A DNA stretch of 62,987 nucleotides, counting the filler, from Licmophora abbreviata (taxonomy: Eukaryota): the NCBI GenBank assembly GCA_900291995.1. It is 29 parts of 29 records of this genome, joined end to end, with 100 filler letters (N's around TTAATTAATTAA, not from the genome) between each part and the next. Parts side by side here need not be neighbours in the genome. Positions count along the whole stretch, not along the records: positions 42,435 to 45,131 come from OLMU01006380.1; 28 more parts are not named here. One strand, given 5' to 3'. Numbering within the stretch: the first letter of the stretch is position 1; every line of letters begins with the position of its first letter. Both the position numbers and the translations under genes were made by a program. Positions 10,178 to 51,149 of this stretch are shown here, piece after piece. The notes beneath the pieces are model-generated. The model was not told the origin of the DNA and made no database searches. It saw only the letters and a list, made by a program, of their open reading frames with translations.

Positions 10178-10178
10178 C

Positions 10179-16927: not shown

Positions 16928-16957
16928 AAAAACCGCGCGGACTAAGCCGCGCGGTTT
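16928..16957 (-). terminator. Rho-independent terminator after the DUF302 gene
   Basis: Stem AAACCGCGCGG/CCGCGCGGTTT, 6-nt loop, T5 tail on the minus strand. Confidence 0.85.
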
Positions 16958-17005
16958 GGTCGGTTCCAGTCAATATCTTGTGAAATCGCGCGAGGGTCGC
17001 GTGAT

Positions 17006-17449: not shown

Positions 17450-17762
17450 GGCGGCGTCCTTTTGTTGTCGTTTGCAAGCGAGCGGCTTGTCATTCCGCCG
17501 CTCATCATAGGGCACGACCGTGCCTTGCCCGTTGATTCAAATCAACAGATGGCGGTTCTGGCGTCTTTGCTGCCGCAGCGCTTTCCGAGGCCGCGCTTGC
17601 ATAGCCCCTGCAGACACTGCATAAAAACCGTGATTTTCCTTTCATTACCCCTTTTCACGAGTGGTTCTGCAAAGGGTGATACATGGGCAGGCGATCTGTG
17701 GCGCAAGCGCGAAAACGCGTCGGCCTGACATAACGATCGGGGTAAGGGGAGACTTGGGTTTC

Positions 17763-18884
17763 ATGACCAAACGGGCACTGATTACGGGAATTACGGGGCA
17801 GGACGGGTCGTATCTGGCGGAGTTCCTGCTGGCAAAGGGCTATGAGGTGCACGGGATCAAGCGGCGGGCGTCGTCGTTCAACACGCAGCGCATCGACGCG
17901 ATCTATCAGGACCCGCACGAGCCGAACCCGCAGATGATGCTGCATTACGGCGATTTGACCGATACCTCGAACCTGACGCGGATCCTGCGGGCGGTGGAGC
18001 CGGATGAGGTCTATAACCTTGGTGCGCAATCCCATGTGGCGGTCAGTTTCGAGGCGCCGGAATACACCGCGGATGTGGATGCGATCGGCACGCTGAGAAT
18101 GCTGGAGGCGATCCGCTTTCTGGGGCTCGAGACGAAGACCCGGTTCTATCAGGCCTCGACCTCGGAGCTCTATGGCAAGGTGGCCGAAACCCCGCAAAGC
18201 GAGACGACGCCGTTTCATCCGCGCAGCCCCTATGCGGTGGCCAAGCTCTATGCCTATTGGATCACGGTCAATTACCGCGAGGCTTATGGGCTTTATGCCT
18301 GCAACGGGATCCTTTTCAACCACGAGAGCCCGCGCCGGGGCGAGACCTTCGTGACCCGCAAGATTACCCGGGGTCTGGCCAATATCGCGCAGGGGCTGGA
18401 GCAGTGCCTGTATATGGGCAATATCGATGCGCTGCGCGATTGGGGCCATGCCAAGGATTACGTGCGGATGCAGTGGATGATGCTGCAGCAGGACGCGCCC
18501 GAGGATTTCGTGATCGCCACCGGCAAGCAATATTCGGTGCGTGAATTCATCCGCTGGTCGGCCGAGGATCTTGGCCTGACGGTGGCGTTTTCAGGCGAGG
18601 GCGTTGACGAGATCGCAACAGTGACCGCAATCGAGGGCGACCGCGCGCCGTCGGTCAAACCCGGCGATGTCATCATGCGGATCGACCCCAAGTATTTCCG
18701 CCCCGCCGAGGTGGAGACCCTGCTGGGCGATCCGAGCCGGGCCAAGGCCAAGCTGGGCTGGGAGCCCGAGATCACCGCGCGCGAGATGTGCGCCGAGATG
18801 GTGGCCGAGGATCTGGCCACGGCCCGGCGGCACGCCTTCCTCAAGGCGAACGGCTATGACCTGCCGGTGAGCCTGGAAAACTGA
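17763..18884 (+). CDS. gmd: GDP-mannose 4,6-dehydratase
   Basis: [53 protein letters not shown]. Confidence 0.99.
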
Positions 18885-18897
18885 AGCTTCCGTCCAG

Positions 18898-20343
18898 ATG
18901 GGCCATAATACGATTACACCGGTTATTCTTTGTGGCGGATCAGGCACGCGGCTTTGGCCGCTGTCGCGCAAGAGCTATCCCAAGCAGTTCGCGCGGATCA
19001 TGGGCGACGAAAGCTTGTTGCAGGGCTGTGCCCGGCGTCTGAGCGGGCACGGCGAGGGGCTGGATTTCACGCCGCCGATGGTGCTGACCAATGCCGATTT
19101 CCGCTTCATGGTGACCGAGCAGCTGCTGGAGGCGGGGATCGATCCCGGCCCGGTGCTGATCGAGCCGGAGGCACGCAACACCGCCCCCGCCGTTCTGGCC
19201 GCGGCGCTGCATCTGGCCAAGGACAGCCCCGATGCGCTGATGCTGGTGGCGCCGTCGGATCATGTGATTCCCGACACGGGCGCGTTCCATGCCGCCATCG
19301 CCAAGGGCGCCGAGGCGGCGCGCGACGGGCGGCTGGTGACCTTCGGGATCGCGCCTACGCATCCCGAGACCGGATACGGCTATCTTGATCTGGGCGATGC
19401 GCCGGACGGGACGGGTGCTGCGATGCCGCTGCGGCGCTTCGTGGAAAAGCCCGACCTTGAGACAGCAAAAGCGATGCTGGAGGCCGGGACTTATCTGTGG
19501 AACGCTGGCATCTTCCTGTTCGCGGCGCGCGATATCATCGCGGCCTTCGAGGCGCATGCACCCGGCCTTGTGGCGCCGGTGCGCGCGGCGGTGGACAAGG
19601 CCCGCGCCGATCTGGGCTTTTTGCGGCTCGATCCGGAAGCATGGGGCGGAGCGGACAGTATTTCGGTCGATTTCGCGGTGATGGAGCGGGCGGACAACCT
19701 GTCGGTGGTACCCTATGCGCATCACTGGTCGGACCTTGGAAGCTGGGCCGCCGTCCAGCAGGAGGCCGGGGCGGATGACAACGGCGTGACCCTGTCGGGT
19801 CCGGCCACGGCGATCGACTGCGAAGGCAGTCTGATCCGGTCGGAAAGCGAAGGTCTGGAGGTTGTGGGTCTTGGCCTGAAGAACACGCTGGTGGTGGCGA
19901 TGCCCGACGCGGTGCTGGTGGCCGACATGGCGCGCACGCAGGATGTGGGTGCCGTGGTCAAGGCGCTGCGCGCCAAGGGCGTGGCGCAGGCGGACAGCTT
20001 TGCCCGCGATCACCGGCCCTGGGGCTATTTCGAGACACTGGCCCTGTCGGGCCGCTTCCAGGTGAAACGCATCGTAGTCAAGCCGGGTGCGGCGCTGAGC
20101 CTGCAAAGCCATGTGCATCGGGCCGAGCATTGGATCGTGGTGTCGGGGACAGCCAAGGTGACGATCAACGACACGGTCAAGCTGGTGAGCGAGAACGAGT
20201 CGGTCTATGTCCCGCTTGGCGCGGTGCACCGGATGGAGAACCCCGGCAAGGTGCCGATGACCCTGATCGAGGTGCAGACCGGCAGTTATCTGGGTGAGGA
20301 TGACATCATCCGCTACGAAGATGTCTATGCCCGCGAGAGTGAC
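18898..20343 (+). CDS. manC: Mannose-1-phosphate guanylyltransferase / mannose-6-phosphate isomerase; stop not reached
   Basis: PVILCGGSGTRLWPLSR..PKQF, FVEKP, WNAGIF, WSDLGSW, cupin LSLQSHVHRAEHW. Confidence 0.97.
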
Positions 20344-20443: not shown

Positions 20444-22375
20444 AGCACCACCTCCCGACGACGGCTCACGTCGTCCAGCACCTCTCCTCCCACTGGCGCT
20501 GCTATGCAGCTCTGACCCACTACCTGGTCCTGCACGCCACCGTCCTCTGGCTTCGCTTCCGCACTCCACCGGACCCCGACGTTCCCCGATACTGGACTCG
20601 ACGCGGCCCCAAGCATCTCCGTCGATTCCGACGCCGCTTCCGTCGAAACATCCACTACAAGCCCCGTGGACTACCTTCGACCTCTTCTCGCCAACTCGCC
20701 ATCCAGGAACGCCGTGCCCAGAACAACAAAGACGCCTACGCCCTACTGCAACGACTCTCCCGCTTTGCGCACGAATCTGACGACCTCTTTCGACGCCCCC
20801 GGCCTCCAGCCAACGTCGAGCGCCACCCAGTCACAGAGGGAGACACAACCGACAAGAATGCAACTGTCACCCCATGTCCATCGACCCCGACCGGTTGATT
20901 GTTACGAATGCTCCAGGTCGCCCCAATATCGCCCACGCTACGCCACGGCCACCGGCTCGACCTCCTCTTCGCCCTAACAAGTCCAAACCCCGTCGCCGTC
21001 GACACACCAAGCAGACCGACCGTCGCTCTCTACCCGCCTTTGTTGCCCATCATGCCTCCGCTACGATCCGAAACGTCGCCCACGCCATCCGCTCCAGCCT
21101 CGTTGCACGACCGGAGACAGCCCATCACCTCGGACCCCATCGAAACCACATTGTATGGGACTCCGGAGCAAGCATCAGCGTCACACACACGGCCTCCGAC
21201 TTCACCAGTGACATCGACGCAGCTCCAGAGGGAGCCACTCTGCAAGGCGTCGGGAAACGCGTCTCAGTCACAGGCACCGGCACCGTCACCTGGAAAATTC
21301 CCGACACCTCAGGCAACCTACGAGACATCGAAGTGCCGGCCCTCCTCGTCCCCAGAGCAACCCAACGCCTCCTCAGCACGTCATCGCTCCTCCAGCACTA
21401 CCCCGACGAAACGATCACCCTCGAACACGGTAGATTGTTGTTAAGTGGTTCCTCCGCGAACGAAAATCAGCCTCTCCGTCACCCAGTCGCCGCACTCATC
21501 GACCCAGCTACGAATCTCCCCATCAGCATCTGCTACGACGCCGACGCCGGCTCCAAGATCAATCGAGCCTTCAACTCGGCTCTGTCCACCGTGTCTCGAC
21601 GGAACTCCAACCTCAGCCCAGCCGAAAAGGAACTCCTACGATGGCACTACCGCCTTGGCCACCTCTCCCAGAAGCAGATCCAGTTCCTCATGCGAACCGG
21701 AGTCCTCGCCCACACCGAAGCAGCCCGCCGTCTCCAGACCGCCGCAAGCAAGCTAACCGATCGCCCTCTCTGCGCCGCCTGCCAGTACGGAAAGCAGCGT
21801 CAACGACCCTCTCCTGGACTCCGCAGCACCGTCGTCAAGGACCGACACGGTGCTCTCCGCGAAAAGGACCTCTTCCCAGGGCAGAAAGTCTCCGTTGACC
21901 ACTTCGTCTGCTCCACGCGAGGCCGTCTCCCCCACACCTACGGCAAAGAAGACACCAAGCTACAGTTCTCCGGCGGCGCCATCTTCGTCGACCATGCATC
22001 CGGCATGATCTTCGTCAACGAACAAGTGCATCTAAACACGCATGAGACAATCGAAAGCAAAACGGCATACGAGAAACACTGCCGCGATTTCGGCGTCACA
22101 CCACAGACTTACCTCTCTGACAACGGCTCCGCCTTCACGTCCGCCGAATTCAACCGACACCTCGAAACGTTCGCCCAGCACTCGAAATTCGCCGGAGTCG
22201 GAGCCCACCATCACAATGGCATCGCTGAACGAGCCATCCAGACAGTCATGTCGATTGCCCGTACCCAGATGCTGCACGCCGCGATTCACTGGCCTGACGT
22301 CGCCGACGCTCGTCTTTGGCCCCTCGCCGTCCAGCACTCCGTGAACCTCTACAACCACATGCCCTCCCCAAGCAC
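20444..22375 (+). mobile_element. Copia pol: linker, protease and integrase, partial
   Basis: IVWDSGAS; WHYRLGH..CAAC; VSVDHF, SDNGS, NGIAERAI. Confidence 0.92.
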
Positions 22376-22475
22376 NNNNNNNNNNNNNNNNNNNNNNNNN
22401 NNNNNNNNNNNNNNNNNNNTTAATTAATTAANNNNNNNNNNNNNNNNNNNNNNNNNNNNNNNNNNNNNNNNNNNN

Positions 22476-24395
22476 GACCGGTTGATTGTTGTTACGCCAC
22501 GTCGCTCTCGTCGGTCTCCTCGCGCCCCCACTCGACTCGGCTTCGACGGCACCCAAGGACGCGGCTACTTCGCGGACCATCACTTCTCCACGTTCCTTGC
22601 CACCCAGCTCCGTCTTCCAGTCTCGTTCGCAGCCTCACGCAACCCTGACCCAGACACGCTAACCTACGACCAAGCCATGCACTCCCACGAGCGCCCACTG
22701 TGGCAGAAGGCCGCCCAAGACGAACTCGACTCCCTCATTGTCAAGGACACCTGGACCGAAGTCCCCACCAGCGACGCCAAGGCCAAGATCCTCCCCGGCA
22801 CCTGGACCTTCCGCCGCAAGCGAACCCCTGATGGAGAGATCAAGAAGTACAAGGCAAGGTATTGTGTTAGAGGAGATCTAGAAGAAACAACTGACGACAA
22901 CTTCTCACCTGTTGTCGGCTGGCCCACTGTGAGACTCTTCCTGACCCTCTCCCTCATCCTAAAATGGACAGCCATCTCCATCGACTTCACCAACGCCTTC
23001 GTCCAAGCCAAGCTTGATACCCCCATCTGGATTCACCTCCCCCGAGGATTCTCCTCCACCCAAGGCAAGGACACCTGCCTACGGCTCACGAAGTCTCTCT
23101 ACGGATTAGCCAGAGCCCCCAAGCTCTGGTTCAGCCACCTCCTCAAGGCGATCCTCGAGCTGGGCCTCATCCAGAGTTCCGTCGACCCCTGCCTCTTCTT
23201 TCGACACGATCTCGTCCTCGTCCTGTACGTCGACGACGGCGGCATCGCCTCCCGACACCCAGACATTGCCGACAAGTTCATTGCCGACCTCCAAGCCAAA
23301 GGATTTGATCTCACCAAGGAAGGCAGCTTCGCCGACTTCCTCGGCATCAAGTTCACTCAGCAGGACGCCCACGAGTACAAACTGACGCAACGCGGCCTCA
23401 TCGACAAAGTCATCGGAGCTGCCGGCCTCGAGAACTGCAAGCCGAACCTATTGCCTACGACCCAGCTCGCACTCGGCGCCGACACTGATGGACCCGCAAT
23501 GAACGAGTGCTGGAGCTACCCGTCGATCGTCGGCATGTTGTTGTACCTGTCAGGCAACAGCCGCCCAGATATCGCCTTCGCCGTCAGTCAGGTTTGTCGA
23601 TTCACCGCCGCCCCTCGACAGAGCCACGCCACAGCTGTGAAGACCATCATCCGATACCTGGCCGGGACCCGTGACGAGGGGACGATCATCCGACCAACAG
23701 GAAGACTCAACCTCGACCTGTTCGTTGATGCCGACTTTTGTTCACTTCACGGTCGCGAGGATTCGCGTGATGTCAACTCTGCGCGCTCGCGCACGGGATA
23801 CATCATCCTGCTGAGCGGCGTACCTCTACTGTGGAAATCTCAACTCCAGACCCACATTTCCCTTTCTACGCTTGAGGCTGAGTATTCGGCTTTATCTTAT
23901 TCCTTGAAAACACTTATCCCTCTCAAACGCATCCTCCTTGAACTCGTCGCCGCTCTCAGCATCGATCAGGAAATCAGCTCTTCCGTTCAAGCCCGTGTCT
24001 TCGAAGACAATCAGGGCGCACTCACCCTCGCTTCCAACCACCGTGTCACCAACCGCACGAAGTACTTCCTCGTCAAGTGGCACTGGTTCTGGCAGCACTC
24101 CTCCGAATTTCTGCTCCTCAAGGTCGCCTCCGTCGACCAGCGTGCCGATTATCTCACTAAGGGCCTTCCTCGCGACGGCTTCGAGCACAATCGTCTTCTG
24201 GTTCAACGTTGGTGACATGAGGTGCCATCATTATATGTCGAGACCTTTCCGACCAAGATGTACATCGAGCCCCGCTCTTTGGAACTTGCTCACACGTTCA
24301 ACAAGGCCTCTGTTCACTCAGTCCCACTTCATCTTTCATCTTTTATTTATTTCTCAAGAAATCACATCAACTTCATTCACACATCTGAGAGGGAG
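22476..24395 (+). mobile_element. Copia RT-RNase H (stop 24215), 3' UTR and probable polypurine tract GAGGGAG at the contig end
   Basis: WTFRRKR..KYKARYCVRGD, SLYGL, LYVDDG, FVDADF, SLSTLEAEY, FEDNQGA, ADYLTKGL. Confidence 0.94.
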
Positions 24396-25488: not shown

Positions 25489-26133
25489 TTTCCGGTTCCC
25501 TGTTCCTCTCTCCTTCCTATAGCTTGATATCGACAAGGTCAATGAGTGGCGAGGTGGAAGATGCCCCACCGATGCGTCATGCCTTCCAATCGATGCGTTT
25601 CATGAAAAGTTGTTGTTGAAGGTTTTGGGCCGTATCCTTGTGGAAGGATCTGATTGGTCCTGCACCAATGAGTGACGTATGTGAAGGAGAGTATGATAAA
25701 GCATGCTGTTGGGAAAGGGTCACACGTGGGGCACATTGCANNNNNNNNNNNNNNNNNNNNNNNNNNNNNNNNNNNNNNNNNNNNTTAATTAATTAANNNN
25801 NNNNNNNNNNNNNNNNNNNNNNNNNNNNNNNNNNNNNNNNAGGTGCAAAAACAAACATCACTATCCTCTCATGGCAAGCTCAAACCAAGAATTTGAGGGT
25901 CTCCGCACGAAGATGCTCTCTACTTCCCCATGCACGGAACGAACGGTACCAAAGTAGATCTCATGCAGTGGATCGGGTCAGAATGCAAGTATAGATTGAC
26001 GTTTCCCACTCAGTACAGGCCTTCTTCTGAGACCGGGTGGAAAGAGCTCTACATGGGTCTCGACTGGTATCAATGGACAGGCCGGTCAGGAACGTACCCA
26101 ACTTAGTAAGTGGTAATGCGATTGTGCGGACAG

Positions 26134-26437
26134 TGTTGGAAGAGTACATTTTGATTTAGGACAGACTGGCATCAGCGGCCAGACCAAAGAAGGAAGAGAG
26201 AACGTTCCAAAGTTAGTAAGTGGAAATGAGAATGTGAGGCCTGAAACGCAGCACGGAGAGAGCAGCTGCGAGGAGAAATTGTGATCTTCGTGAAAGGTCT
26301 CATTCTATTGAAACAATCCCATCGTAAGAACAGTTTGATTGACTCCTCTTATAGATCTACCTAGTTTCATTTCACTGTACACGTGAGGCGTACACCGGAC
26401 TGATTGTCCGGTAGCAGTGATCTGTGAGGTTTCAACA
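26134..26437 (+). repeat. Putative LTR (TGTTGGAA..TTTCAACA); 5' boundary uncertain
   Basis: Imperfect terminal inverted repeats; 3' end matches 6411; precedes the small ORF and gag. Confidence 0.4.
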
Positions 26438-26476
26438 TTGTTTCAATAGAAACGAAAGAACCTTTTGGTACAACGA

Positions 26477-26824
26477 ATGACGAGAACTGACGACTCAGTG
26501 TTAGAAATCATTCAACAGTTGGAACAGCTGCGGGTCCAGGAAGGTGTGCTCATCCGTCGATTGATCGCTGCGCGGGACGAAGAGACTCGTTCACCAACGG
26601 CGTCGCCCAGGAACAACTCCGCCAGCTCTGGCGTGGAGTCGTATCGGATTGGCAACACTGTGCAGATCACAAACGAAGTCAAGTACTCTTTGCGCGGTCG
26701 TACCGTCACTGAACGAGACAGGGTCAGAACAGTCATCAAGGTAACAGGAAAGCGTGTTCATATTCGGACCATCAGCGGTATAAACACCAGCAGAGCCCCA
26801 CAGAACCTTGAGCACCATGGCTAA
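26477..26824 (+). CDS. Second copy of the 115-aa KOW/SH3-like ORF
   Basis: QLEQLRVQEGVL and SGVESYRIGNTV..NEVKY..GRTVTERDRV shared with 6018..6365. Confidence 0.75.
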   Translation: MTRTDDSVLEIIQQLEQLRVQEGVLIRRLIAARDEETRSPTASPRNNSASSGVESYRIGNTVQITNEVKYSLRGRTVTERDRVRTVIKVTGKRVHIRTISGINTSRAPQNLEHHG

Positions 26825-27180
26825 CGGCACGGTAGCCCAAAGCGGCAGCACAACAGGCGAGACCGGCGACAGCCAAGGAGCAACCACCGGAGCTCAACAG
26901 TCAGGGGCGACAACGAGTGGCCAGTCCCAGCGCTCCTCTCGGAATGGCCGCTGCAACCGGTCGCGTTTCTCCCGCGGTTCAGCGGTAGAGAAGAAGAAGT
27001 CGAACTTTTAAGGGTAACACGGATGGCATGAATGGCCACGTGTTTCAGACGTTTCAGGAATCTGGCAATCCCCAGCAGTTCGTAAAGACCCTAGTAGAGG
27101 CACTCGCAGAGTATTCCGCCAAAAACCAGAAGCATTGCGGAGACCTGGCAACCCTTTTCAAGACCCTCGACGCCCCTGTG
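26817..27180 (+). pseudogene. Copia gag 5' end, with a +1 frameshift near 27008, interrupted at about 27180
   Basis: FKGNTDGMNGHVFQTFQES..TLDAPV matches 4423..6025, then homology stops. Confidence 0.85.
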
Positions 27181-27673
27181 CAATATCCTGAATAACTAGG
27201 ACTAATATTTGCTTATAGCACTGATTGACAAACAGATGTTTCGTTTACATCTTACTAAAATAGATCGACAGACAGACGTCTGTACGATAGACATTTCTAG
27301 TCACGCGCGATGACGCTGACATCTAATTAGTACATCGCAGAGCTTATCTACAAATGAGATGTCTGACGTCATCTNNNNNNNNNNNNNNNNNNNNNNNNNN
27401 NNNNNNNNNNNNNNNNNNTTAATTAATTAANNNNNNNNNNNNNNNNNNNNNNNNNNNNNNNNNNNNNNNNNNNNCATTCACGAGTCTCTGGACAGGTGAA
27501 AAGTTCCAGAAGATAACGTGCATCAAAAGTAGATCTAAAAGCTTATAATTTCTATTTTACTCTGCAACAACATCCCCTCGTCGTTGTTGCTCCCCTAGAC
27601 TACACGCATAGTGCACAGTGTTAACACTCACGAAGTGTTTAGTCTTAGACAAGACTCTACTGAGCGAGAAACC

Positions 27674-35971: not shown

Positions 35972-36637
35972 CTAGATAAGCCCCCACTGGATGGCTTTGG
36001 CAACCGCGTGAGACCGGTTTTTCGCATCAAGAGCTCTGCAGATGTTTCTGACGATCATTTTGACATGCATTTCGCTGATGTCGAGCGCCAGAGCAATTTC
36101 CTTGTTGATGTGACCTTCAGCAATCATGCGCAGTGTTGTCGTTTCCATATCATTAAGCGGATTATTACGGCCAATATCGTTGTCACCTCGGGGTGATCCA
36201 GACGCGATAATGCTCGAAGGCACAAAGACTTGCCCGCTTGCGATCAACTCCAGAATACTTGGCAGAGCCTCTAAATTTGTATCACCCGATATGACGCCCT
36301 CCGCTCCATGCCTGAGGGCCGCCCAGGCAAAATTGGAATCAAAATCTTCGCAATAAACAGCCATCTTTGGACCATCATGTGTTGGTCCAATGACTTTCCA
36401 GCTATCGAGCTCTTTTAGACTGTGCCGGTTCGCCCCGAGCACAACGACATCTAGGTCAGCAGCCTTGCTGGCACCTGCCGTCTGCTTTCGATACGCATCA
36501 AGGATCACAACGTCAGCAGAATACTCGCTCTGAAGGTAGTACGACAACGCGCCGGCAGTCATGTTTTTGAAACCAACCAATCCCACCTTTAAGGTCGGCT
36601 TGGTTTTTTCTTCGATCAGTTTTCGTTTTTCTTGCAC
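35972..36637 (-). CDS. LuxR/NarL-type regulator with degenerate receiver domain
   Basis: GHINKEIALALDISEMHVK..ICRALDAKNRSHAV HTH; GAEGVI and GQVFVP receiver remnants. Confidence 0.88.
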   Translation of the reverse strand: MQEKRKLIEEKTKPTLKVGLVGFKNMTAGALSYYLQSEYSADVVILDAYRKQTAGASKAADLDVVVLGANRHSLKELDSWKVIGPTHDGPKMAVYCEDFDSNFAWAALRHGAEGVISGDTNLEALPSILELIASGQVFVPSSIIASGSPRGDNDIGRNNPLNDMETTTLRMIAEGHINKEIALALDISEMHVKMIVRNICRALDAKNRSHAVAKAIQWGLI

Positions 36638-36868
36638 ATGATTTGCCTCAAAGGACCGTTGGCTGCAACTGCAAGCACATTGGTGCGATTGGACACGCCA
36701 AACGTATCTAAAAATCTAAAGATCACATTTTCCTGATTTTTGATATAAAAATTATACCAAACGTCAATTTCCCCATCGAGGCCGGCCATGCTGGGCCGTA
36801 CGCCCCCATTTCTGCGAGCTATAAAAATCCACCGGGTATATGCCCTGCCACATCAGGGTAAACGTTTC

Positions 36869-38627: not shown

Positions 38628-39732
38628 GAAAATCGTCCATGTAAATGTCGACGTATTGTAATGGCCGGCGGCGTTGTGGGTTTAAGTGCGGGTCTGCTTG
38701 TGCCGGGATGGGGACGGCAACATCGAGCGGGGCGATCTGAGGGCTCCGTGATCGGGGCGGCGGCCGGCTGGAGGCAAGTGCGTCGAGCGCGTGGCTTGGC
38801 GCGACATGGCGTTGCAAGATCTGCCGGTTAGTGACATCGGCTACTGTTTCCGTAGCGGTGCAAAAGAGCGGCGGTGAGAGCTTCCAGCCCATTGGTAAAC
38901 GAGTGGGGATGGCGACTAGCGGTGGCTCCCCTGGGAGATTCGGGAAGGCAACGGCCAGGGATGGAGCCAGGTCTGGGTTGAGGTGCATCCTGTAGAAGCC
39001 GTCGGCTAGATCGACCTTCAACAGGTACACCTTGCCTCGGTCGGGGTTTGCGAGCAGGATGCGGCGGAGCAAACGATCAAGTGCGCGACCAAACTGCATG
39101 GATTCAATGGGGGCGTTGGGTTGCGTCACGTCATTGATGCCAGAGTAGGTGTAATCCACAATAGGCCGGGAGCGCCGGGCCGCTTGGGGTACAACACCAA
39201 TAGGACTAATACGTAGACTGGGTGTATGTTGTACTTCGTCAAACGGTAGTACGACCCAGTATCCTTTGTCCACCATGTCTGCCATGTCTTCGCGTAAGAA
39301 CTCTAAATTTTCGTAGGCGGACTTATGAGGTCCGCGCGTGATGCGTGATATCTTCTCGTCAGACGACCAGGGAGCGTCGGCGAGGGTGATTGGGACGCCA
39401 CGAGCTTTGTAGGCGCTCAGCAGCCGGTGCGCGGGGTGATCGCGCACGGTCTGTAAGTCGCCCCAATCACCAGCTCCCTGTCGAATGCGTAGGAGCGTAG
39501 TGAGACCGTGACGGCGTAGAAGTTGCGAGTCTAAACGTATACTCTTACCTAATTTATCATTAAGTTGATTACTGGCAATGGCTGAGGCCCGCCGTTTGCG
39601 GGGCTCGGTCCGTTGCTGGTGACTACTACTAAGACTCTCCGCCTGCGGGGGTGGCGGTACCGTCGCACGAGGCGACGGTGAGGTGAATGGCTCTTGGCGA
39701 GTGCCCCCGAGCACTCGGCCATTGCCGACGTC
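38628..39732 (-). mobile_element. DIRS-like RT, copy A, in frame with gag after TAG; partial
   Basis: LRISPIGVVPQ..RPIVDY, KVDLADGFY, LPMGWKLSPPLFC, YMDDF. Confidence 0.9.
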
Positions 39733-41940
39733 CTATTCAGGACGCCAGTGGGTTTCGCACCACTCCAACAAGGCAGCCTGATCCGCGTCGGGGTGCTCAT
39801 TGTGGTGGTCTGCGGCGTTGCCGCACCTTTCGTTGCACTGCCCCACGATATGGTAGGACAGGCAGCGCAGGTTGCCGCTCGCGCCGCGAGGCAGTGCGAT
39901 GCCCTGATCCTGGCACCTCCTGCGGATGGCGCGCGCACGACAGTTGGGACGGCTCTTGACATCACGGAAGCGGGAGTCAAGCTGCATGTTGCGAACGATA
40001 TTCTGTGCCGGAGCAGCCGGCGGCGGTGCTGATCCTGACGGTTGACCGGCGGGCGATGGTGCTGGGGCAGGTAGTGACGCTGGCGCTGGGACTGGTGTGG
40101 GCTGTAACGCCGTCGGCAAGCTGTAACGCCAGAAATGGGCGCCCTTGGCGGCCTCATACACTACCGGCTTGGCCATGAAAGGCACTGGCATGTGGGAGCG
40201 CTCCTGCATTTTAAACCAATGCGCGATCTCGACCTGGATGTAGCGCTGTAAGTCAAGCGGCAGGGTGAGCTGCTGCTGCGCCTGTACGGCAAGTTCGCTG
40301 GCACACACATCCAAGGCCTGCCGCGTGCTGGTGAGATACGCAACAATCGGATGGGCCATCCCTAGGATTGCCGACATGACGGAACGGGTCGCATCCAGCG
40401 AATGCTGGACCGCTTGCAAGGTAGTGGCCGCTCTGACATCGTCAGGTGCCTCCAGGACCAGGGTGTCAGCTAAGGACGGAACGCCTTCACCCCCATGTAT
40501 GTGGCGGTAGAGGGTTGCCCTGTGAGCCACCTGCTCCGCTTGCTGAGGGGTCGGCAGGCCAAACAAGAATGGTTGGATGCCCAACGTGACGTCGTCCGAA
40601 TTCGCCCCAGCGAAACTCAAGCTAGTGAGTTTCGACACCAGGGACACAGACACAGGCACTTCGAAATAGACGCCGAGTGCCGCACGCTGCTCGTCGACCA
40701 CATTCTGAACCGTGGTGAGACGACCAGTCTTCGGTGCACGGGCTAACTGGGACCAAAGAGGTGGGAGTGCCGACTCCTGCGCTACCTGGCAAATGCGCAT
40801 GAGCTTTGTAAGCCCATGCACACCGTAGAACTGTGTCGGGGTTTTCCCCCTGTCTGTCGCCTGCTGTCTGGCCTTCGAGTCCAGACGCTGCTGGCGCTGC
40901 TCTGCCGTAAGGCCATCGATGGCTGATATGACCGGCTGCAGAGTGGCGGCAGTGGGTCCTTCGGCTTGCTTCCAGCCGGGTAGGTCGTGGCGTACTCGCC
41001 GTTCAAAGAAACGGATGAGTGCCGCGTTCGGTGGCTGTGGCAGCGCCGGCCAGTGACGCGAAACCGCAGAAACTAATGGGTTGGCGTCAATCGCTGTCGC
41101 CGCCACCTTCAAGAAATCCAAGAGTGGACGGCAAGCTGCGACCTGGTTACTGGCGCGTGCTGCCAATAGTACTCGCTGGAATGCTGTCTTGGGCGGCAGG
41201 GCCACGGGCAACAGCAAGGATACGTATTCGAATGGGACGAAGGTAGATAAGCGCGTACGCACCTCTACCATCTCGTCTCCTTCGCCAAATGGGATCAAGC
41301 CATCCGGTGCCATGACTATGCTGGTCAGCATCTCGTCGTCTGACATCACGAAGGTCCCTTGAGGTGCCAGGTTGCTGTTATCGTCGGGAAACGGGGCGAG
41401 GACAAATTGCTGCTGCACGATGTCCCCGACGATGGCGTACGTGTTGCCATCCCATGGCTCCGGTGCCCCGACCACGGTAATAGGGAACCGCGTGACTCGG
41501 TGGAATACCTGAATCACCCCAGCATTTTCCGCACCCGGTGCCCTGCAATGCTGTATCATCGCCAACGGGATGTCATGCGCGGAGGCCGCCGCTACTCGTG
41601 CCGCCAGCGCCTGAGGGTTGTAGCGTGACGGCCCAAGCACGGGGACATGGAAGTCACGCTCCACCTCAGCGTAATCACTCGCGTGTGGGTCATTCTGCCC
41701 AGACAAGAAGAATTCTTGATACGTGCGTGCTGCGACTGGAGGTGGGGGCACGACTACTCCTGCTGGGCCTCCTGGTCCCGCCGGAGGAGCAAACGGTCCA
41801 TCGGGCACATGCGGTTCTGGCAACGGCGCCTCCGGGGGTGGATGACCCGGGGGTGGCCCGCCAACCGGATGAATGGGAGGCGGCATTCCTGCCGCCTGAG
41901 CGCCAGCGACTGCGGCTGGCGCAACTGGAATGTCTGCCAT
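39733..41940 (-). CDS. DIRS-like gag ORF1, copy A (start MADIP)
   Basis: Long intact ORF; terminal CLSYHIVGQCNERC..DH finger; highly similar to copy B. Confidence 0.85.
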   Translation of the reverse strand: MADIPVAPAAVAGAQAAGMPPPIHPVGGPPPGHPPPEAPLPEPHVPDGPFAPPAGPGGPAGVVVPPPPVAARTYQEFFLSGQNDPHASDYAEVERDFHVPVLGPSRYNPQALAARVAAASAHDIPLAMIQHCRAPGAENAGVIQVFHRVTRFPITVVGAPEPWDGNTYAIVGDIVQQQFVLAPFPDDNSNLAPQGTFVMSDDEMLTSIVMAPDGLIPFGEGDEMVEVRTRLSTFVPFEYVSLLLPVALPPKTAFQRVLLAARASNQVAACRPLLDFLKVAATAIDANPLVSAVSRHWPALPQPPNAALIRFFERRVRHDLPGWKQAEGPTAATLQPVISAIDGLTAEQRQQRLDSKARQQATDRGKTPTQFYGVHGLTKLMRICQVAQESALPPLWSQLARAPKTGRLTTVQNVVDEQRAALGVYFEVPVSVSLVSKLTSLSFAGANSDDVTLGIQPFLFGLPTPQQAEQVAHRATLYRHIHGGEGVPSLADTLVLEAPDDVRAATTLQAVQHSLDATRSVMSAILGMAHPIVAYLTSTRQALDVCASELAVQAQQQLTLPLDLQRYIQVEIAHWFKMQERSHMPVPFMAKPVVYEAAKGAHFWRYSLPTALQPTPVPAPASLPAPAPSPAGQPSGSAPPPAAPAQNIVRNMQLDSRFRDVKSRPNCRARAIRRRCQDQGIALPRGASGNLRCLSYHIVGQCNERCGNAADHHNEHPDADQAALLEWCETHWRPE

Positions 41941-42434
41941 CTGAGTTAACAGAGGGAAGACTCTTCTGACGAAAGGTAAACAGCGACGCAAGGTTTCCTG
42001 CGGCCACACGACAGATTAAAACTACCGTGTGATCGAGCTGTTTTCCAGTTCTCATGAAGAATGAGAGCCGACGAAAGGCCCTTTGCACTCGCGAATCTCA
42101 ATTTCGAGTCGCTGATCGGCATCACACTTATCGGTCCCGGTCATTGTTGCAGCACTTTCAACGTTAAGTAAATGACCGGCGGGAGAGGATTGCCTGACCT
42201 CGGGGACTTTCTCGAGTCCAGTGTGGCATCACGTTTCAGTCACGGTTGCGCGCGTGCCGATTCAGATGGCGTCTCACCCGCGAAAAAGATATCGTGATGC
42301 CGGTATGATACGACGATCCACGAACATCACGATTNNNNNNNNNNNNNNNNNNNNNNNNNNNNNNNNNNNNNNNNNNNNTTAATTAATTAANNNNNNNNNN
42401 NNNNNNNNNNNNNNNNNNNNNNNNNNNNNNNNNN

Positions 42435-44518
42435 CCCCTCCACTGGCAGGTGGTCCACCTATCCACCCCGATGGACCCGGGGTTCCAGGCGGGGCTGCAG
42501 CCGTACTGCCTCCTCCGGTAGCGGCGCGAACGTATCAGGAGTTCTTTCTGTCCGAACAGAATGACCCACATGCGGGCGACTACACCGAGGTGGAGAGAGA
42601 TTTTCACGCCCCAGTGCATGGACCGTCCCGCTACAACCCGCAGGCCTTGGCGGCCAGGGTGGTGGCTGCATCGGCGCATGATGTACCGCTGGCAATGATT
42701 CAGCATTGCAAGGCACCGGGCGCCGAAGGCGTTGGCGTAATCCAAGTCTTCCATCGCGTCACGCGCTTCCCCATCACAGTGGTGGGCCCACCTGAACCGT
42801 GGGATGGAAACACCTATGCTCTCGTTGGAGACATCGTTCAGCAACAGTTCGTTCTCGCGCCTTTCCCTGATGGGAACAGTAACCTCGCTGCGCCTGGGAT
42901 CTACGTGATGACGGACGACGAGATGCTCGCGAACATAGGAGTAGCCCCGGACGGATTGATCCCGTTCGGCGAAGGAGCAGAGCTGGTGGAAGTGCGGACG
43001 CGGTTGACGACGTTTGTGCCGTTCAAGTACGTACCCTTGCTCCTGCCTGCAGCCCTACCACCCAAGGCCGCCTTCCAGAGAGTGCTCCTAGCAGCGAGGG
43101 CCGACGATCAAGTAGTCGCCTGCCGACCGCTGTTGGACTTCTTGAAGGTGGCGGCGACGGCTACCGAAGCACATCCTCACGACTCAGCAGTGTCGAGGTT
43201 CTGGCCCACTCTGCCCCAGCCGCCGAACGCCGCTCTCATTCGTTTCTTTGAACGGAAAGTGCAACACGATCTCCCAGGCTGGAAACAGCGTGTTGGGCCC
43301 TCGGTAGCAGCGCTTCAGCCGGTCATCTCAGCGATCGATGGCCTCACCGCCGAACAGCGTCAGCAGCGCCTGGATTCGAAGGCTAGGCAACAAGCTACGG
43401 ACCGGGGGAAGACGCCAACGCAGTTTTACGGTGTACACGGGATCACGAAGCTCATGCGCGTGTGTCAAGTCGCGCAAGAATCCGCGCTCCCGCCGCTCTG
43501 GTCGCAGTTAGCCCGAGCACCAAAGACGGGACGGCTCACCACGGTCCAAAATGTGGTTGACGAACAACGAGCCGCCCTGGGTGTATATTTTGAGGTTCCG
43601 GTATCGGTATCATTGGTGTCGAAGCTCACCAGTCTGAGCTTCGCAGGGGCCAACCCGGAGGACGTCACTCTAGGAATACAGCCGTTTCTCTTTGGCTTGC
43701 CGACGCCCCAGCAAGCCGAGCAAGTAGCCCACCGCGCGGCGTTATACCGCCACATCCACGGAGGTGAAGGGGTGCCATCACTCGCGGACACCATGATCTT
43801 GGAAGCACCAGATGACGTCCGGGCAGCCACCACGTTACAAGCGACACAGCATTCGATCGACGCAACCCGCGCGGTGCTTTCGGCCATGTTGGGCATGGCA
43901 CATCCAATCGTGTCATACCTAACAAGTACCCGACAAGCGCTCGACGTGTGTGCTAGCGAACTTGCCGTACAGGCCCAGCAGCAGCCCACGCTCCCACTCG
44001 ACCTCCAGCGTTACGTCCAAGTGGAGATGGCGCATTGGTTCAAAATGCAAGAGCGCGCGCATATGCCGGTGCCCTTTATGGCGAAACCGGTAGTGTATGA
44101 GGCGGCTAAGGGCGCCCATTTCTGGCGTTACAGTCTGCCGGCAGCTGTGCAGCCTCTTCCAGCACCAGCACCCGCTCCACCTACCACCCCTGCACCAGCT
44201 CCAGCGCAGCCGTCGGGCTCCACTCCGCCTCCGGCTAGTCCAGCCCAAAACATCGTTCGAAACATGCAGCTGGACCCCCGATTCCGCGACGTGAAAGCCC
44301 GCCCGAACTGCCGAGCACGTTCTATTCGTAGGCGTTGCCAAGAGCAAGGCATCGCCCTGCCTAGGGACGCGCGAGGTAAGCTGCGTTGTCTGTCCTACCA
44401 CATCGTCGGACAGTGTAACGAGCGATGCGGCAACGCTGTCGACCACCACAACGACCAACTTGAAGCAGACCAGGTCGCTTTGTTGGAGTGGTGTGAGGCA
44501 AACTGGCGTCCTGAATAG
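42435..44518 (+). CDS. DIRS-like gag ORF1, copy B, 5'-truncated
   Basis: Protein closely similar to copy A with many synonymous changes. Confidence 0.85.
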
Positions 44519-45131
44519 GACGCCGGCAATGGCCGAGTGCTCGGGGGCACTCGCCAAGAGCCATTTACCTTACCGTCGCTTCCGGCGACGGCACCGCCAC
44601 CCCCGCAGGCGGAGAGTCTTAGTAGTAGTACCAATAAGCAGCACCGGCCGCGCCCCGTTAAACGACGTGCCGCAGCCATTGCTAGCTTACATCATAACGA
44701 TAAACTAGGTAAGAGTATACACTCAGACTTACAACTTCTACGCCGCCACGGTCTCACTACGCTCCTACGCTTTCGACAGGGAGCCGGTGATTGGGGCGAC
44801 TTACAGACCGTGCGCCACCACCCGGCGTACCGGCTGCTGAGCACCTACAAAGCTCGTGGCGTCCCTATCACCCTCGCCGACGCTCCCTGGTCGTCTGTCG
44901 AGAAGACATCGAGCATCTCTCGCGGGCCCCACAAGTCCGCCTACGAACATCTCGAGTTCCTACGAGACGACATGGCCGACATGGTCGCTAAAGGTTATTG
45001 GGTAGTTTTGCCGTACGACGCCGTGCAGCAGACACCTAGTCTGCGCATTAGTCCCATCGGCGTCGTGCCGCAAGCCGCCCGGCGTTCACGCCCGATCGTC
45101 GACTATACGTACTCCGGCATCAACGACGTGA
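44519..45131 (+). mobile_element. DIRS-like RT N-terminus, copy B, in frame after TAG
   Basis: RGPHKSA, LRISPIGVVPQAARRSRPIVDY. Confidence 0.88.
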
Positions 45132-45231: not shown

Positions 45232-46233
45232 ATCCTCCAAGAAGCTCTCCGCCACGTCCTTCCGGACTCCCGCCTCCGCATCACCGAGGACGTCCACTCC
45301 ACATTGGACCACTTCCGACAGCTCCAAGCGGATTTGCACGCCCGACCCACGCGTATCGCCGAGCTTGTCCCCCTACCGCCGACAGTCCACGGCTGTCACG
45401 ACGCCGCGGCCGCCGGCGCTGGTGGCATCCTTCTACCGACGCCCACAGCCGTACCCCGCGCAACTTCCCTGCGCACCACCAACGGCCGTCGCCGTATCCA
45501 TCATACTCCAGGGCCAATCGTCTGGCGCATGCCGTTTCCTTCTTCCATTGCGGCCGACCTCGCCAGCTTCGACAACCCCCACGGTGACATCACCAACACC
45601 GACCTCGAGCTCGTCGGCAGCCTCCTGCAATCCGCCGCCGCCTCCGATTGTTTTGACTTGCGTGAAAGGACCCACCTCCAGCGTACCGACAACCTCGGTA
45701 CTATGTACTGGCAACGTAAGGGCTCAACCACTACGCTCAAGCCCGCCTCCCGGCTTTTGAGATATCAGGCCGCCCATCAACGTTTCCACCGACATGTCAC
45801 GGTCCATGACTACATCCCCGGACCCGAGAACCAACCGGCCGATGATGCCTCTCGCCTTCAGCACCTGTCAAACTCACAATTCTTGCGCCATTTTGACACT
45901 CACTACCCGCAGACTCTCTCCTGGCGACTTTGGACCCCGCCTCCCGAGCTGCGTTCCTGGATGATCTCCGCGCTGCAGACCACGCCGTCAGCTTCGGCGT
46001 TACCGCTGCCCGTGCCTCCGCCGCCGATACCCACTGGGAGCTTTGGTCCGACTTCTGCGCCGAGCTGGCCGTCGACCCATTACTCCAAGGCTTCGCCGAC
46101 AAAATCACCCTACTCCAAGTCTACCTCCACCGCTACCGCACTGGCATCCTCGCTCCCCGCGGCCGTGCCGTCCGAGCACGCACCGCTGAGGATGCCCTAC
46201 GGTCGGTTGGTCAAACGTTCTCTGCGATGGGGT
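45232..46233 (+). mobile_element. DIRS-like RNase H, overlapped from about 45930 by the N-terminal domain of the tyrosine recombinase
   Basis: CHDAA..GAGG, ITNTDLEL, TDN, YIPGPENQPADDASR; second frame HWELWSDFC..LLQVY..TAEDALRSVGQ. Confidence 0.82.
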
Positions 46234-49114: not shown

Positions 49115-49256
49115 NNNNNNNNNNNNNNNNNNNNNNNNNNNNNNNNNNNNNNNNNNNNTTAATTAATTAANNNNNNNNNNNNNNNNNNNNNNNNNNNNNN
49201 NNNNNNNNNNNNNNGAAACCTTCAGTCAATTTTCAATTTCAGGCAACGTCGCAACC

Positions 49257-51149
49257 ATGATGTCCTCGACCGATGGCAAAGATGAAGAGACGCCCGTGGA
49301 GAGCATAAGCGACCCTTCTCATCGAGACTCGATCGAAAATCATCGATTTGAAGTCGATAACAAGAGATCACTGTGCTTGGGCGGCGAGAACTCTCCCAAC
49401 AAGAAAGCGAAACGCGTTAGTAGCAAGCATGTGGACAAGCAAGTGTTGCATGTTCGAAGAACAATTCAACAATGCTGTGCGACTGACGATCTAGCAGCCG
49501 CTATGGACATATACAAGAAGGCACTTGAGGACGATATCAGAATAGAAGCTCAGTCTTTCTATAATCTACTCAGTCTGTGTGGTGGATTGGGCGATCGAGG
49601 TGTGCATGTGGGAACGCCCAAGCCGCGAGAAGAAGGAGGTGCCATGCCAGGGAAGGGAAAGACTAAATCGGATGTCTGCGTGACAGCAGAGCTACCAATG
49701 AGAATACGAAAAGAATATGCTTTTCGTATCAAACAGAAAATGGATGACCGAGGGCTACATTTGAATGAGACTGCCTACTCGGCACTGATTCGCATGTTGT
49801 CCAAGGAACATGAGGTGGATCGCGCCTCGGAACTGCTGGCGGAGGCAGAGCTCGTTTCTCAGTGTAAGCCGAGGTTGCGACTGTACGCCTCACTATTGTG
49901 TGCCTACTGTGAGCTGCGATGCATGGTTCCTGCGTTGGAATTGTGGGCCCGGTTGTCGAAAAGAGGCCTCGTCTTGACTGAAAGAGAATACGAAGCTCTG
50001 ATGCGCTGTGCTGTCCAAGTACAAGATGCAGTTGTGATGGAACGGATTTTGTCCGAACTGGCAGAAGATGTTTTGGTGCCCAGTCGAGTTACGCTGAAAT
50101 CCATCACCGACTGGTTTGAGTCTCCCGGGTCGGTAAGTGAGAGCGACGTCTTACTCGATACGGCATCCAACGCAATTCACGGCGTGGATCTTCCCACACG
50201 TGACGCACCGTCAATGGGGCCAGTGACAAGTCCAGTCAGTCAGAAGTGGAGAGTCAGTCGAGACTGTACGGTAGACTCTCGGGCTGGCATATTGATGTCG
50301 GGTTGCTTACAGGGCGAAACACTCCAGCCAGTCACTTTGCGACCTTCCACCTGGAACGATATGAAACAAATGAACGAAACAATCGTGTTACATGGCATGC
50401 TGGAAAAGGACAAGTCAGAGTTCCAAGGTGGTGGTAAGGGCCCAAAACGCACGACGGTGAACAAGCATGCCATGGAACGAAAACAAATCAACTGGGAAAG
50501 CTTCCGAAGCTATCTCAAACAACGCTCCAGCACGAGTGGGCCGATTGATGTGGTGATTGACGGCGCGAATGTTGGGTATTTCAAGAAAAACTTCGCGAAA
50601 GCACCGAAACACGTCGACTATCACCAAATCGATTGGGTCGTTCAACACTTCCGTCAGGCCAACAAGAACGTCCTTCTCATTTTGCACGAGCGTCATTTTG
50701 CACCCAACTTGATGCCAAACTCGGCTGCCCCAATTGTTGAGACTTGGAAGGACGTTTTGTACAAGGCCAACTTTGGCATGAACGATGATTGGTTCTGGAT
50801 GCATGCCGCCTTGCACAGTCCAGGCGCGTTGGTTGTTACAAATGACGAGATGCGCGACCATCATTTTCAGTTGTTGCACGCAAGATCCTTTCTGCGTTGG
50901 AAGGAACGACATCAAGTGAAGTTCTCCTTTGGTGACTGGGACGATAGTGGGAAAGAGAGGCATGCCGAGTTCGCTTTCCCCGATCCGTACAGTCGACGCA
51001 TTCAGCGACTCGCGCGTAGCGGAGGGCTCGTCGTGCCACTCCCGAAACGCGGAGATGAACGACGCTTCTTGGACGGCAGTCATGTTGCCAACGACAATGA
51101 GCCTACCGACGAAAGGTACGTATGCATTACGGCGGTCGATCTAAACTAG
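49257..51149 (+). CDS. PRORP: Protein-only RNase P (PPR plus NYN)
   Basis: PPR-like repeats (NETAYSALIR, PRLRLYASLL); VVIDGANVG, NDDWFWMHAA, VTNDEMRDHHF, FLRWKERHQV. Confidence 0.93.
   Translation: MMSSTDGKDEETPVESISDPSHRDSIENHRFEVDNKRSLCLGGENSPNKKAKRVSSKHVDKQVLHVRRTIQQCCATDDLAAAMDIYKKALEDDIRIEAQSFYNLLSLCGGLGDRGVHVGTPKPREEGGAMPGKGKTKSDVCVTAELPMRIRKEYAFRIKQKMDDRGLHLNETAYSALIRMLSKEHEVDRASELLAEAELVSQCKPRLRLYASLLCAYCELRCMVPALELWARLSKRGLVLTEREYEALMRCAVQVQDAVVMERILSELAEDVLVPSRVTLKSITDWFESPGSVSESDVLLDTASNAIHGVDLPTRDAPSMGPVTSPVSQKWRVSRDCTVDSRAGILMSGCLQGETLQPVTLRPSTWNDMKQMNETIVLHGMLEKDKSEFQGGGKGPKRTTVNKHAMERKQINWESFRSYLKQRSSTSGPIDVVIDGANVGYFKKNFAKAPKHVDYHQIDWVVQHFRQANKNVLLILHERHFAPNLMPNSAAPIVETWKDVLYKANFGMNDDWFWMHAALHSPGALVVTNDEMRDHHFQLLHARSFLRWKERHQVKFSFGDWDDSGKERHAEFAFPDPYSRRIQRLARSGGLVVPLPKRGDERRFLDGSHVANDNEPTDERYVCITAVDLN

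Follow-up and report, generated by a model that had tools for sequence, protein, structure and literature searches.

How does a retroelement make its polymerase when the frame that encodes it follows the gag-like frame in the same phase, on the far side of a stop codon? The question is raised by two copies of an element of the DIRS order in a 62,987-base stretch of DNA from Licmophora abbreviata (assembly GCA_900291995.1; "the window" denotes this whole stretch), in each of which a UAG closes the gag-like frame and a reverse transcriptase (RT) frame continues in phase behind it. A first-pass annotation had proposed that a conserved element of three hairpins, H1, H2 and H3, stimulates readthrough of this UAG to give a Gag-RT fusion in a tyrosine recombinase (YR) retroelement. 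From a comparison of the junction with those of its relatives, we consider it probable, at roughly 0.7, that the element uses programmed stop-codon readthrough to give a Gag-Pol fusion, with an RNA hairpin at a fixed distance past the stop acting as the stimulator.

Gag and pol share one frame in both window copies

Copy A occupies the contig at 42435-45131 (plus strand) and copy B the contig at 38628-42334 (minus strand). Both are cut by contig ends, and they share 77.3% identity over 2628 nucleotides (nt). As the first-pass annotation had reported, the gag-like frame of either copy ends in WRPE-TAG (44516-18 in copy A; 39735-33 in copy B), with the RT frame in phase after the stop. Its observation that the first ATG comes late was likewise confirmed: no in-frame ATG occurs in the 60 and 58 codons from the stop to the first conserved RT motif, DKLGK, and the first methionine of the pol frame is reached only after several conserved RT-domain motifs. 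The features of the two copies, where ORF stands for open reading frame, are as follows.

42437..44515, plus strand: copy A gag-like ORF1, an open frame of 693 codons, 5' end cut by the contig end
44516..44518, plus strand: copy A in-frame TAG between gag and pol, next base G
44519..44524, plus strand: copy A spacer, 6 nt
44525..44562, plus strand: copy A family-conserved 38-nt hairpin, candidate readthrough stimulator, approximately H1
44573..44591, plus strand: copy A H2, 7-8 base pairs (bp), G+C-rich, lineage-specific
44594..44612, plus strand: copy A H3, 5 bp with a 9-nt loop, weakly supported, identical in both copies
44519..45131, plus strand: copy A pol frame, cut by the contig end; linker 44519-44698 poorly conserved, RT from DKLGK at 44699
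39736..42015, minus strand: copy B gag-like ORF1, 760 codons stop to stop
39733..39735, minus strand: copy B in-frame TAG
39689..39726, minus strand: copy B 38-nt hairpin, 6 nt past the TAG
39660..39678, minus strand: copy B H2
39639..39657, minus strand: copy B H3
38628..39732, minus strand: copy B pol frame, 368 codons, comprising the linker and the RT up to YMDD at the contig end

The gag-like ORF1 of copy A is 30% identical to ORF1 of one relative, L001 (tblastn), and a Pfam search assigned no family to ORF1 of either copy. The pol frame of copy B matched RVT_1 with an E value of 5e-6, under the Pfam cut-off, and carries the YMDD motif at the contig end.

A single stop codon is kept across the family

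In metagenome collections, 55 proteins related to the pol fragment were found, with identities of 41-66%. Their protein-level conservation begins at DKLGK and does not extend to the residues immediately behind the stop. Scanning metagenome contigs with the pol alignment yielded 191 relatives, from which 80 loci were kept (40-54% identity in the RT), and a scan of prokaryotic genome assemblies added five contigs in metagenome-assembled genomes, bringing the set to 85 loci. A scan of viral contigs gave 86 pattern matches, none of them a relative. Together with the two window copies, the 85 loci make up a junction census of 87 sequences, seven of which run off their contig, leaving 80 that are informative.

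Sixty of these have, directly before the RT frame and in phase with it, an open frame of 290 codons or more that ends in the single intervening stop, and in 12 others the upstream frame is open to the contig end, so that 72 are open up to a single stop. Short closed frames set the remaining eight apart, and the GGY motif described below persists in four of them, which have the appearance of damaged copies. None of the loci in the census replaces the stop by a sense codon. The first-pass annotation had held that relatives with out-of-frame junctions would count against a fusion; what the census returned was a frame shared in nine-tenths of the informative loci (72/80).

The identity of the stop is not fixed. 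Among 62 unique junctions it is TGA in 45, TAG in 16 and TAA in one, and on the RT tree the three types alternate among close relatives, from which it follows that the stop as such is kept and not one particular codon. We compared its surroundings with the known leaky contexts (UAG-CAR-YYA, type I; UGA-CGG or UGA-CUA, type II; UAG-G, type III). All 16 unique UAG junctions, those of the window included, have G as the next base, and GAA is the codon just before the stop in 35 of the 62. What does not vary is the spacing: GGY occupies positions +10 to +12, leaving a spacer of 6 nt, in 62/62 unique junctions.

These data bear on a reading in which the stop is decoded as an ordinary residue, through a variant genetic code or, with UGA as selenocysteine, in the manner of the Naiad retroelements. 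Selenoprotein retroelements do exist (PMC8557442), and UGA is the commonest stop here. Yet all three stops occur at the site and alternate among close relatives, both window copies have UAG, the long frames are free of any other in-frame stop, and the eukaryotic selenocysteine insertion sequence (SECIS) elements lie in 3' untranslated regions (PMC8557442). We give this reading next to no credence.

A second alternative is termination followed by reinitiation, in which ribosomes would finish Gag, stay on the mRNA with help from the hairpin and restart on pol. A stop with structure nearby, and a downstream ORF without an obvious promoter of its own, would suit such a scheme. In known coupled restart sites, however, the start codon lies close to the stop, whereas 28 of the 62 linkers lack an in-frame ATG altogether, over 49-175 codons, and in the others the first ATG is scattered between codon 0 and codon 159. 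Nor does reinitiation need a shared frame, yet the frame is shared in the 72 of 80 loci counted above (including the 12 cut by a contig end). This makes reinitiation very improbable as the source of Pol.

In one clade of relatives (L042, L046, L067, L069, L071-L073 and L075), about 100 extra codons separate the hairpin from the RT, giving linkers of 163-175 codons against a median of 72.

Synonymous change is suppressed just after the stop

The first-pass annotation had noted that the 114 nt beginning with the stop differ between the window copies at only seven positions, and this count was reproduced exactly (44523, 44566, 44571, 44580, 44583, 44584 and 44592). In a sliding comparison, identity reaches 59/60 at 44502-44561, against 36-53/60 in gag. 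Gag is, as stated there, rich in synonymous divergence: 336 of 590 codons for identical residues differ. Across the 38 codons from the stop, in contrast, only one of 33 such codons differs (Fisher p = 1e-10). Moreover, five of the six codons that did change after the stop changed non-synonymously, which indicates a constraint on nucleotides and not on protein.

The same suppression, which the first-pass annotation had proposed to look for in other family members, is present among them: in 15 pairs of relatives, synonymous changes affect 10 of 59 codons at positions 0-9 past the stop, as against 39 of 82 just before it.

Apart from this stretch, the window copies have a second block of low synonymous change at 44696-44920 (about 39561-39337 on the minus strand), located where the RT domain begins; in it, 7 of 64 codons for identical residues differ (against 336/590 in gag; p = 3e-13). 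The fold of this block has a z score of only -2.0; a further element acting at the RNA level is a possibility here. The two conserved blocks are divided by sequence that differs by 35% and contains insertions and deletions. The pairs of relatives show a narrower synonymous dip at codons +80 to +89.

Several other features of the junction were considered in passing. The +1 frame is open across it in both copies (44295-44708 on the plus strand, 137 codons; 39549-40160 on the minus strand, 203 codons), as happens readily in G+C-rich DNA. A +1-frame ORF as the source of the conservation was set aside, its extent of 44295-44708 being a mismatch to the suppressed stretch. An intron at GGTAAGAGT (44708-44716) was rejected, as the LGKS encoded there is a conserved part of the DKLGK motif. 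In a run that was guessed to be RNA, one contig connects 44616 directly with 44699, skipping 82 nt with the ends TC..AC and with 21 nt on its shorter side; the joint keeps the stop and may represent a copy with a linker deletion.

A covarying helix is phased to the stop

In most relatives the junction conforms to stop-N6-GGCG(U)GGGG, followed by 40-90 variable nt and then CCCC(UGU)CGCC, and the two conserved strands close a long irregular hairpin of 60-110 nt. Unconstrained minimum free energy folding pairs the ends of this segment in 25 of 30 cluster representatives, with a mean z score of -3.2. The 3' end of the segment was set by the conserved 3' motif, since an energy-based choice gave over-long segments.

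The first-pass annotation had suggested covariation across family members as a check, and the base of the hairpin does covary. The 11 basal pairs were examined in a structure-blind MAFFT alignment of 25 cluster representatives and compared with 500 shuffles. This revealed that 85.4% of cells are paired, against 72.4 +/- 1.4% after shuffling, and that the covariation score is 0.388, against 0.175; in both cases 0/500 shuffles reached the observed value, a count that is not to be read as a probability, as the rows are related. Cells changed on both sides number 43, compared with 14.1 in shuffled alignments, and when partners are shifted by one to three columns pairing falls to 38-56%. The forms seen at the base of the hairpin include GGCG/CGCC, GGUG/CACC, GGCU/AGCC and GGCA/UGCC. 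Cognate strands form a duplex of -21.5 kcal/mol and non-cognate strands one of -17.7 kcal/mol, a difference blunted by the shared core. A model-fitted alignment of 57 distinct rows gave similar counts, biased toward the structure.

A covariance model of the long hairpin found 68 matches with E < 0.01 in both strands of 516 kb. None of them falls on the antisense strand, and for 64 the first position coincides with a stop of the census. Of the other four, those in the permuted contigs L003 and L061 are second copies of the junction, and the last lies at L074:589. In L074 (589-650), the frame that opens behind the matched stop at 589 runs for 604 codons and is out of phase with the RT match at 2799, so that this locus is a rearranged or frameshifted copy or has another layout. 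Behind the 3' strand CGCC, the long-hairpin relatives have a conserved ACCCC (in-frame L-S-P-P-P/Q), for which no pairing partner was found.

The window copies carry a short form of the hairpin

The long-hairpin model gives no match to the window copies or to L001, L020, L033, L080 and L083-L085. In this short class (the window, L001, L020, L033, L080, L083, L084 and L085) a hairpin of 35-38 nt runs from the GGY at +10 to a closing GCC, with unrelated inner sequences; its stability is matched by 0.1-7.5% of the same-length segments of the respective locus. RNAalifold, applied to nine short-class junctions, recovers four basal pairs only, because the registers of the inner stems differ. A quick-search RT tree of 41 rows unites the 28 long-hairpin rows in one clade with a Shimodaira-Hasegawa-like approximate likelihood ratio (SH-aLRT) support of 99, and the window copy falls outside it, among rows with short or medium hairpins. 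The membership of the window copies in the family is judged by the position of the hairpin, the GGC...GCC base and the short-hairpin relatives. In light of these comparisons, the window copies appear to belong to a basal group with 35-38 nt hairpins, and the H1 of the first-pass annotation is essentially the family element.

All three hairpins of the first-pass annotation are predicted by RNAfold, although H1 has a different register at its base. A base of GGC/GCC and UGGC/GCCA starting at +10 gives -21.4 kcal/mol, 5 better than the -16.4 kcal/mol of the AAUGGC/GCCAUU proposed before; it is the register common to the relatives and yields the 6-nt spacer of the family. From the bottom upward, H1 then consists of the GGC/GCC base, a 2x3 internal loop, UGGC/GCCA, a bulged C and GAGUGCU/GGCACUC. 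The 38-nt hairpin has a predicted free energy of -19.7 kcal/mol and a z score of -2.97; the complete 114-nt folds of the two copies have z scores of -2.2 and -2.6. Each hairpin was ranked against all same-length segments of its own contig, and H1 a second time in 3-nt steps. The stability of H1 was matched by 0.08-0.12% of segments in copy A and, in 3-nt steps, by 0.17% in copy B. H1 is identical in copies A and B, and in a third copy the change C44540>T keeps the pair as U.G.

H2, at -12.3 kcal/mol, is matched by none of 2641 segments in copy A and, at -11.2 kcal/mol, by 0.05% of 3651 segments in copy B. Its stem is identical between the copies and its loop differs. The third copy, a diverged one from a marine metagenome run, keeps H2 through one C-to-U (U.G) change, while an insertion, a substitution and a deletion jointly replace its top pair (a single contig at depth 2.4). 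H2 thus looks like a real structure, with thin evidence from the third copy. H3 is weaker, with -7.5 kcal/mol matched by 1.5% of segments in copy A, and by 1.6% in copy B. The seven differences between the window copies do all fall outside the core stems of H1-H3, as had been claimed, with a chance probability of 0.015; however, neither H2 nor H3 has a counterpart in the relatives. The conserved three-hairpin element is therefore better described as one family hairpin accompanied by two lineage-specific ones.

The kissing loop proposed between H1 and H3 fared less well. The 5-nt complement between the two loops is present, but codon shuffling of the downstream sequence equalled it in 1182 of 2000 trials. 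An H-type pseudoknot of the murine leukaemia virus (MuLV) kind was not found either: the longest complement between loop and downstream sequence is 5 nt, which is at chance level, and in six short-hairpin relatives such complementarity is no better than chance. A search of Rfam gave no match in or near the junction up to an E value of 10, and six weak matches elsewhere on the two contigs, all below gathering scores. It is conceivable that H1, H2 and H3 act as a composite, possibly through contact between the H1 and H3 loops, forming a pseudoknot-like barrier that tunes the ratio of Gag to Gag-Pol; the family would then be a series from 35-nt through 110-nt hairpins to multi-hairpin arrays, indifferent to the type of stop (UGA, UAG or UAA) and with a 6-nt spacer throughout. 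We regard this elaboration as quite unlikely.

The 5' arm of H2 (44573-44583) shares 12 identical nt with L084, where they encode K-S-L-P-A. Here, and at the conserved ACCCC of the long-hairpin relatives, a short peptide motif may overlap the RNA features.

Could there be no dedicated signal at all, and the similarity of the two window copies reflect recent exchange between them, combined with chance folding of a G+C-rich, proline-coding sequence? The window on its own offers some grounds for such a view: it holds two copies only, the z scores of the 114-nt folds are modest, H3 is weak, the loop-loop match is at chance level, and a second highly similar block lies close by. The two conserved blocks are, however, divided by the diverged stretch described above, and the family supplies a covarying hairpin at the same position in dozens of distant relatives as well as suppression in 15 other pairs. 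Chance conservation is hardly tenable on these sequence comparisons, and the family data already contradict it.

Probable readthrough stimulated by the hairpin

Taken together, a stop kept across the family, a spacer of one length in 62/62 junctions, covariation and suppressed synonymous change strongly support the core of the first-pass proposal, a structure-stimulated Gag-RT fusion in a YR retroelement, while the architecture of the structure is revised. The element would be laid out as a gag-like ORF1, one stop, an RT-encoding ORF2 in the same frame and a YR-encoding ORF3 overlapping in another frame. The gag stop would end translation for most ribosomes; for a fraction, a near-cognate tRNA would be accepted at the stop, and these would read on to make the Gag-Pol fusion. 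The putative stimulator is the RNA hairpin, which begins to pair exactly 6 nt past the stop, an offset that would put it at the mRNA entrance when the stop occupies the ribosomal A site. For the window copies this would be the 38-nt hairpin at 44525-44562 (39726-39689 in copy B). We favour readthrough because a single stop of any type is kept, the frame is shared and no start codon is conserved and, above all, because a covarying helix is phased to the stop despite threefold variation in its length.

The covariation shows that the structure matters, not what its job is, and this leaves room for a hairpin that acts in RNA or single-stranded cDNA in some other way, such as Gag binding or packaging, dimerisation or a step of reverse transcription, with Pol made by another route, for example from an internal promoter or by internal initiation, to which part of the Tca2 signal has been attributed. 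The Tca2 element of Candida albicans sets a precedent, in that its junction sequence alone gave no readthrough and a minor promoter is present (PMC2194720), and the second suppressed block at 44696-44920 points to other nucleotide-level constraints nearby. Against this, the helix starts exactly 6 nt past the stop in all 62 junctions although hairpin lengths range from 35 to about 110 nt, and nothing in packaging or priming would call for an element phased to a stop codon. A conserved ATG is also absent (28/62 linkers have none, and in the window the first methionine lies beyond several RT motifs), and gag and pol share one frame. On balance, another job for the hairpin is unlikely.

Several observations weigh against readthrough. 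The 6-nt spacer is shorter than the spacers of at least 8 nt in the best-studied stimulators (PMC13517186). The bases that follow UGA (A in 15, G in 13, C in 13 and U in 4) obey no CGG or CUA rule. H1 of the window lineage, being invariant but for one U.G change, has no covariation of its own, and the long-hairpin model misses the window copies. The covariation test used a structure derived from the same sequences, which somewhat favours its result, as well as related rows. Among the sequencing runs recorded with the stretch (all of them Logan contigs, with shares of at most 0.25) there is no RNA run, and four runs that were examined cover it in short, shallow pieces only. Finally, the gag-UGA-pol junction of Tca2, which has a predicted pseudoknot, gave no readthrough in a yeast reporter (PMC2194720).

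The nearest known analogues are found in the alphaviruses (Venezuelan equine encephalitis virus, VEEV; Sindbis virus, SINV; chikungunya virus, CHIKV) and in Colorado tick fever virus (CTFV), which likewise combine an in-frame stop, a short spacer and a long irregular hairpin. Readthrough structures start at +12 to +16 in MuLV, VEEV, SINV and CTFV, and at +9 or +13 in CHIKV (PMC13517186). Those of the alphaviruses and CTFV thus start between +9 and +16 and span 78-177 nt, and the alphavirus stem-loops consist of two conserved strands around variable sequence (PMC13517186), a description that the long-hairpin clade fits. Unlike them, the present putative stimulator starts at +10, shows no sequence or Rfam kinship with them, is found behind all three stops, with UGA outside the CGG and CUA contexts, and belongs to a retrotransposon rather than an RNA virus; it is compact (38 nt) in the window lineage.

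MuLV resembles the element in having gag and pol in one frame, UAG followed by G (as in the window copies), and a structure just downstream, which in MuLV sets the ratio of Gag to Gag-Pol (PMC13517186). It has an 8-nt spacer and a pseudoknot, however, whereas we find a 6-nt spacer and a plain hairpin; and pol here, in which neither a protease nor a DDE integrase was detected, is followed by a YR. Tca2 (Ty1/copia), also a retrotransposon, likewise has an in-frame UGA, and a structure is predicted 3' of it. As its junction alone gave no readthrough in Saccharomyces cerevisiae and contains a minor promoter (PMC2194720), such a junction arrangement by itself is no proof of mechanism. In contrast to the family described here, the available text of PMC2194720 reports no family-wide covariation for Tca2.

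The element is of the Ngaro/PAT type

Full-length relatives measure about 6 kb, with an ORF1 of about 700-800 codons, an ORF2 of about 820-970 and an ORF3 of about 400 that overlaps the end of ORF2 in another frame. RVT_1 was found below threshold in ORF2 of 8 of 12 relatives, and the YMDD/YVDD motif is readable in the alignment. For ORF3, Phage_integrase was a weak match in 11 of 24 members, and a profile search against the sequences of the PDB gave no meaningful match. An AlphaFold (AF2) model of ORF3 (predicted local distance difference test score, pLDDT, 79.9) has its best PDB fold matches in Cre, with an E value of 3e-7 and template modelling (TM) scores of 0.53/0.64. Invariant columns are R200, K252, R337, R340 (R-x-x-R), W363 and Y371, which we take to be the recombinase active-site residues. 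On this model, ORF3 is a tyrosine recombinase with a predicted Cre-like fold.

A further contig of the window carries part of the same element family.

45232..46233, plus strand: third fragment, with the 3' part of ORF2 and the start of an overlapping ORF3 (YR) in another frame

Compared with ORF2 and ORF3 of L001 and L007, this fragment is 42-53% identical (tblastn; E 1e-26 to 1e-86). Its ORF3 starts at about 45876, and only the N-terminal part of ORF3 lies in the window.

The designation "DIRS-like" given by the first-pass annotation is correct at the level of the order, to judge from the Cre-like YR encoded by ORF3, but the repeats are of the Ngaro/PAT type and not the inverted terminal repeats (ITR) and internal complementary region (ICR) that make up the DIRS1 layout (PMC3266345). 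One relative, L035, has split direct repeats, in which 1-127 equals 5961-6087 and 6424-6550 and a 463-nt B+A unit occurs at 5639 and 6102. A search of four loci for inverted repeats found none. The full A1-[ORFs]-B1A2B2 pattern, which has been described for the Ngaro element of Cafeteria burkhardae (PMC8547959), was resolved in L035 only. We therefore place the element with the Ngaro/PAT type rather than the DIRS1 type, on sequence features whose repeats come from L035 alone. Ngaro and PAT-like elements are inseparable here, because Pfam, run on ORF2 of 12 relatives, detects neither RNase H nor methyltransferase. The Cafeteria Ngaro resembles the present family in its size of about 6 kb, its G+C-rich composition, its gag-like ORF1, RT/RNase H (RH) ORF2 and YR ORF3, and its split repeats (PMC8547959), a likeness by description and not by comparison with Cafeteria sequence; the available part of that paper is silent on how ORF2 is translated.

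Many of the relatives of about 6 kb are circularly permuted, with ORF3 ahead of gag, and others have terminal overlaps (L007, where 1-123 equals 6326-6448) or exceed one unit (L035); the loci concerned are L007, L015, L020, L023, L024, L029, L052, L058 and L035. Tandem or circular forms would be expected to give such patterns, as would an assembly that spans the split repeats. In L027 (11254-11531) three tandem copies of a 93-nt unit lie right behind ORF3. The clade comes from metagenomes; the carrier runs that were examined are marine, and one weak Atlas lead points toward diatoms.

Other contents of the window

The window is made up of 29 short contigs (1.0-4.3 kb) linked by N44-TTAATTAATTAA-N44. 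Since these separate contigs were joined artificially, the head-to-head placement of copies A and B is uninformative, as is neighbourhood across the linkers generally. Their content is mixed. Pieces of Copia-type retroelements lie at 1-2637 and 20781-24212 and a Gypsy-type piece at 6539-7951; a group II intron RT/maturase occupies a contig of 36% G+C at 9499-13671. Bacterial-looking GDP-mannose (sugar-nucleotide) genes are found at 16339-20343, a LuxR-type regulator at 35975-36715 and a eukaryotic protein-only RNase P (PRORP) at 49215-51146. The contigs at 4423-6438 and 25841-27374 are 69% identical over 785 nt in opposite orientation and represent a separate repeat family without a Pfam match.

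Implications for DIRS-order retroelements

The principle of a Gag-Pol made by readthrough that a 3' structure stimulates is known. What is new is the class of element, a compact RNA motif unrelated to those described, and an unusually rich natural covariation. Papers on the DIRS order speak of separate or overlapping ORFs (PMC8547959, PMC3783388, PMC3266345 and PMC6681497), and neither a full-text literature search nor the available text of these four papers describes readthrough or recoding for DIRS-order elements; older key papers might mention the in-frame stop. The RT set of Gao et al. (2003) included DIRS elements, according to PMC2806351.

How DIRS-order retroelements produce their polymerase has hardly been addressed so far. 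If our reading is true, a large and diverse clade of retrotransposons uses a leaky gag stop like that of retroviruses, with a signal that is compact, phased to the stop, tolerant of all three stops and represented by many natural variants with compensatory changes. The family would then offer a comparative series with which to study the way in which eukaryotic readthrough is promoted by a simple hairpin 6 nt from the A site. A rule for annotation would also result, by which a stop-N6-GGY hairpin marks gag and pol frames, now split by gene callers, that should be joined.

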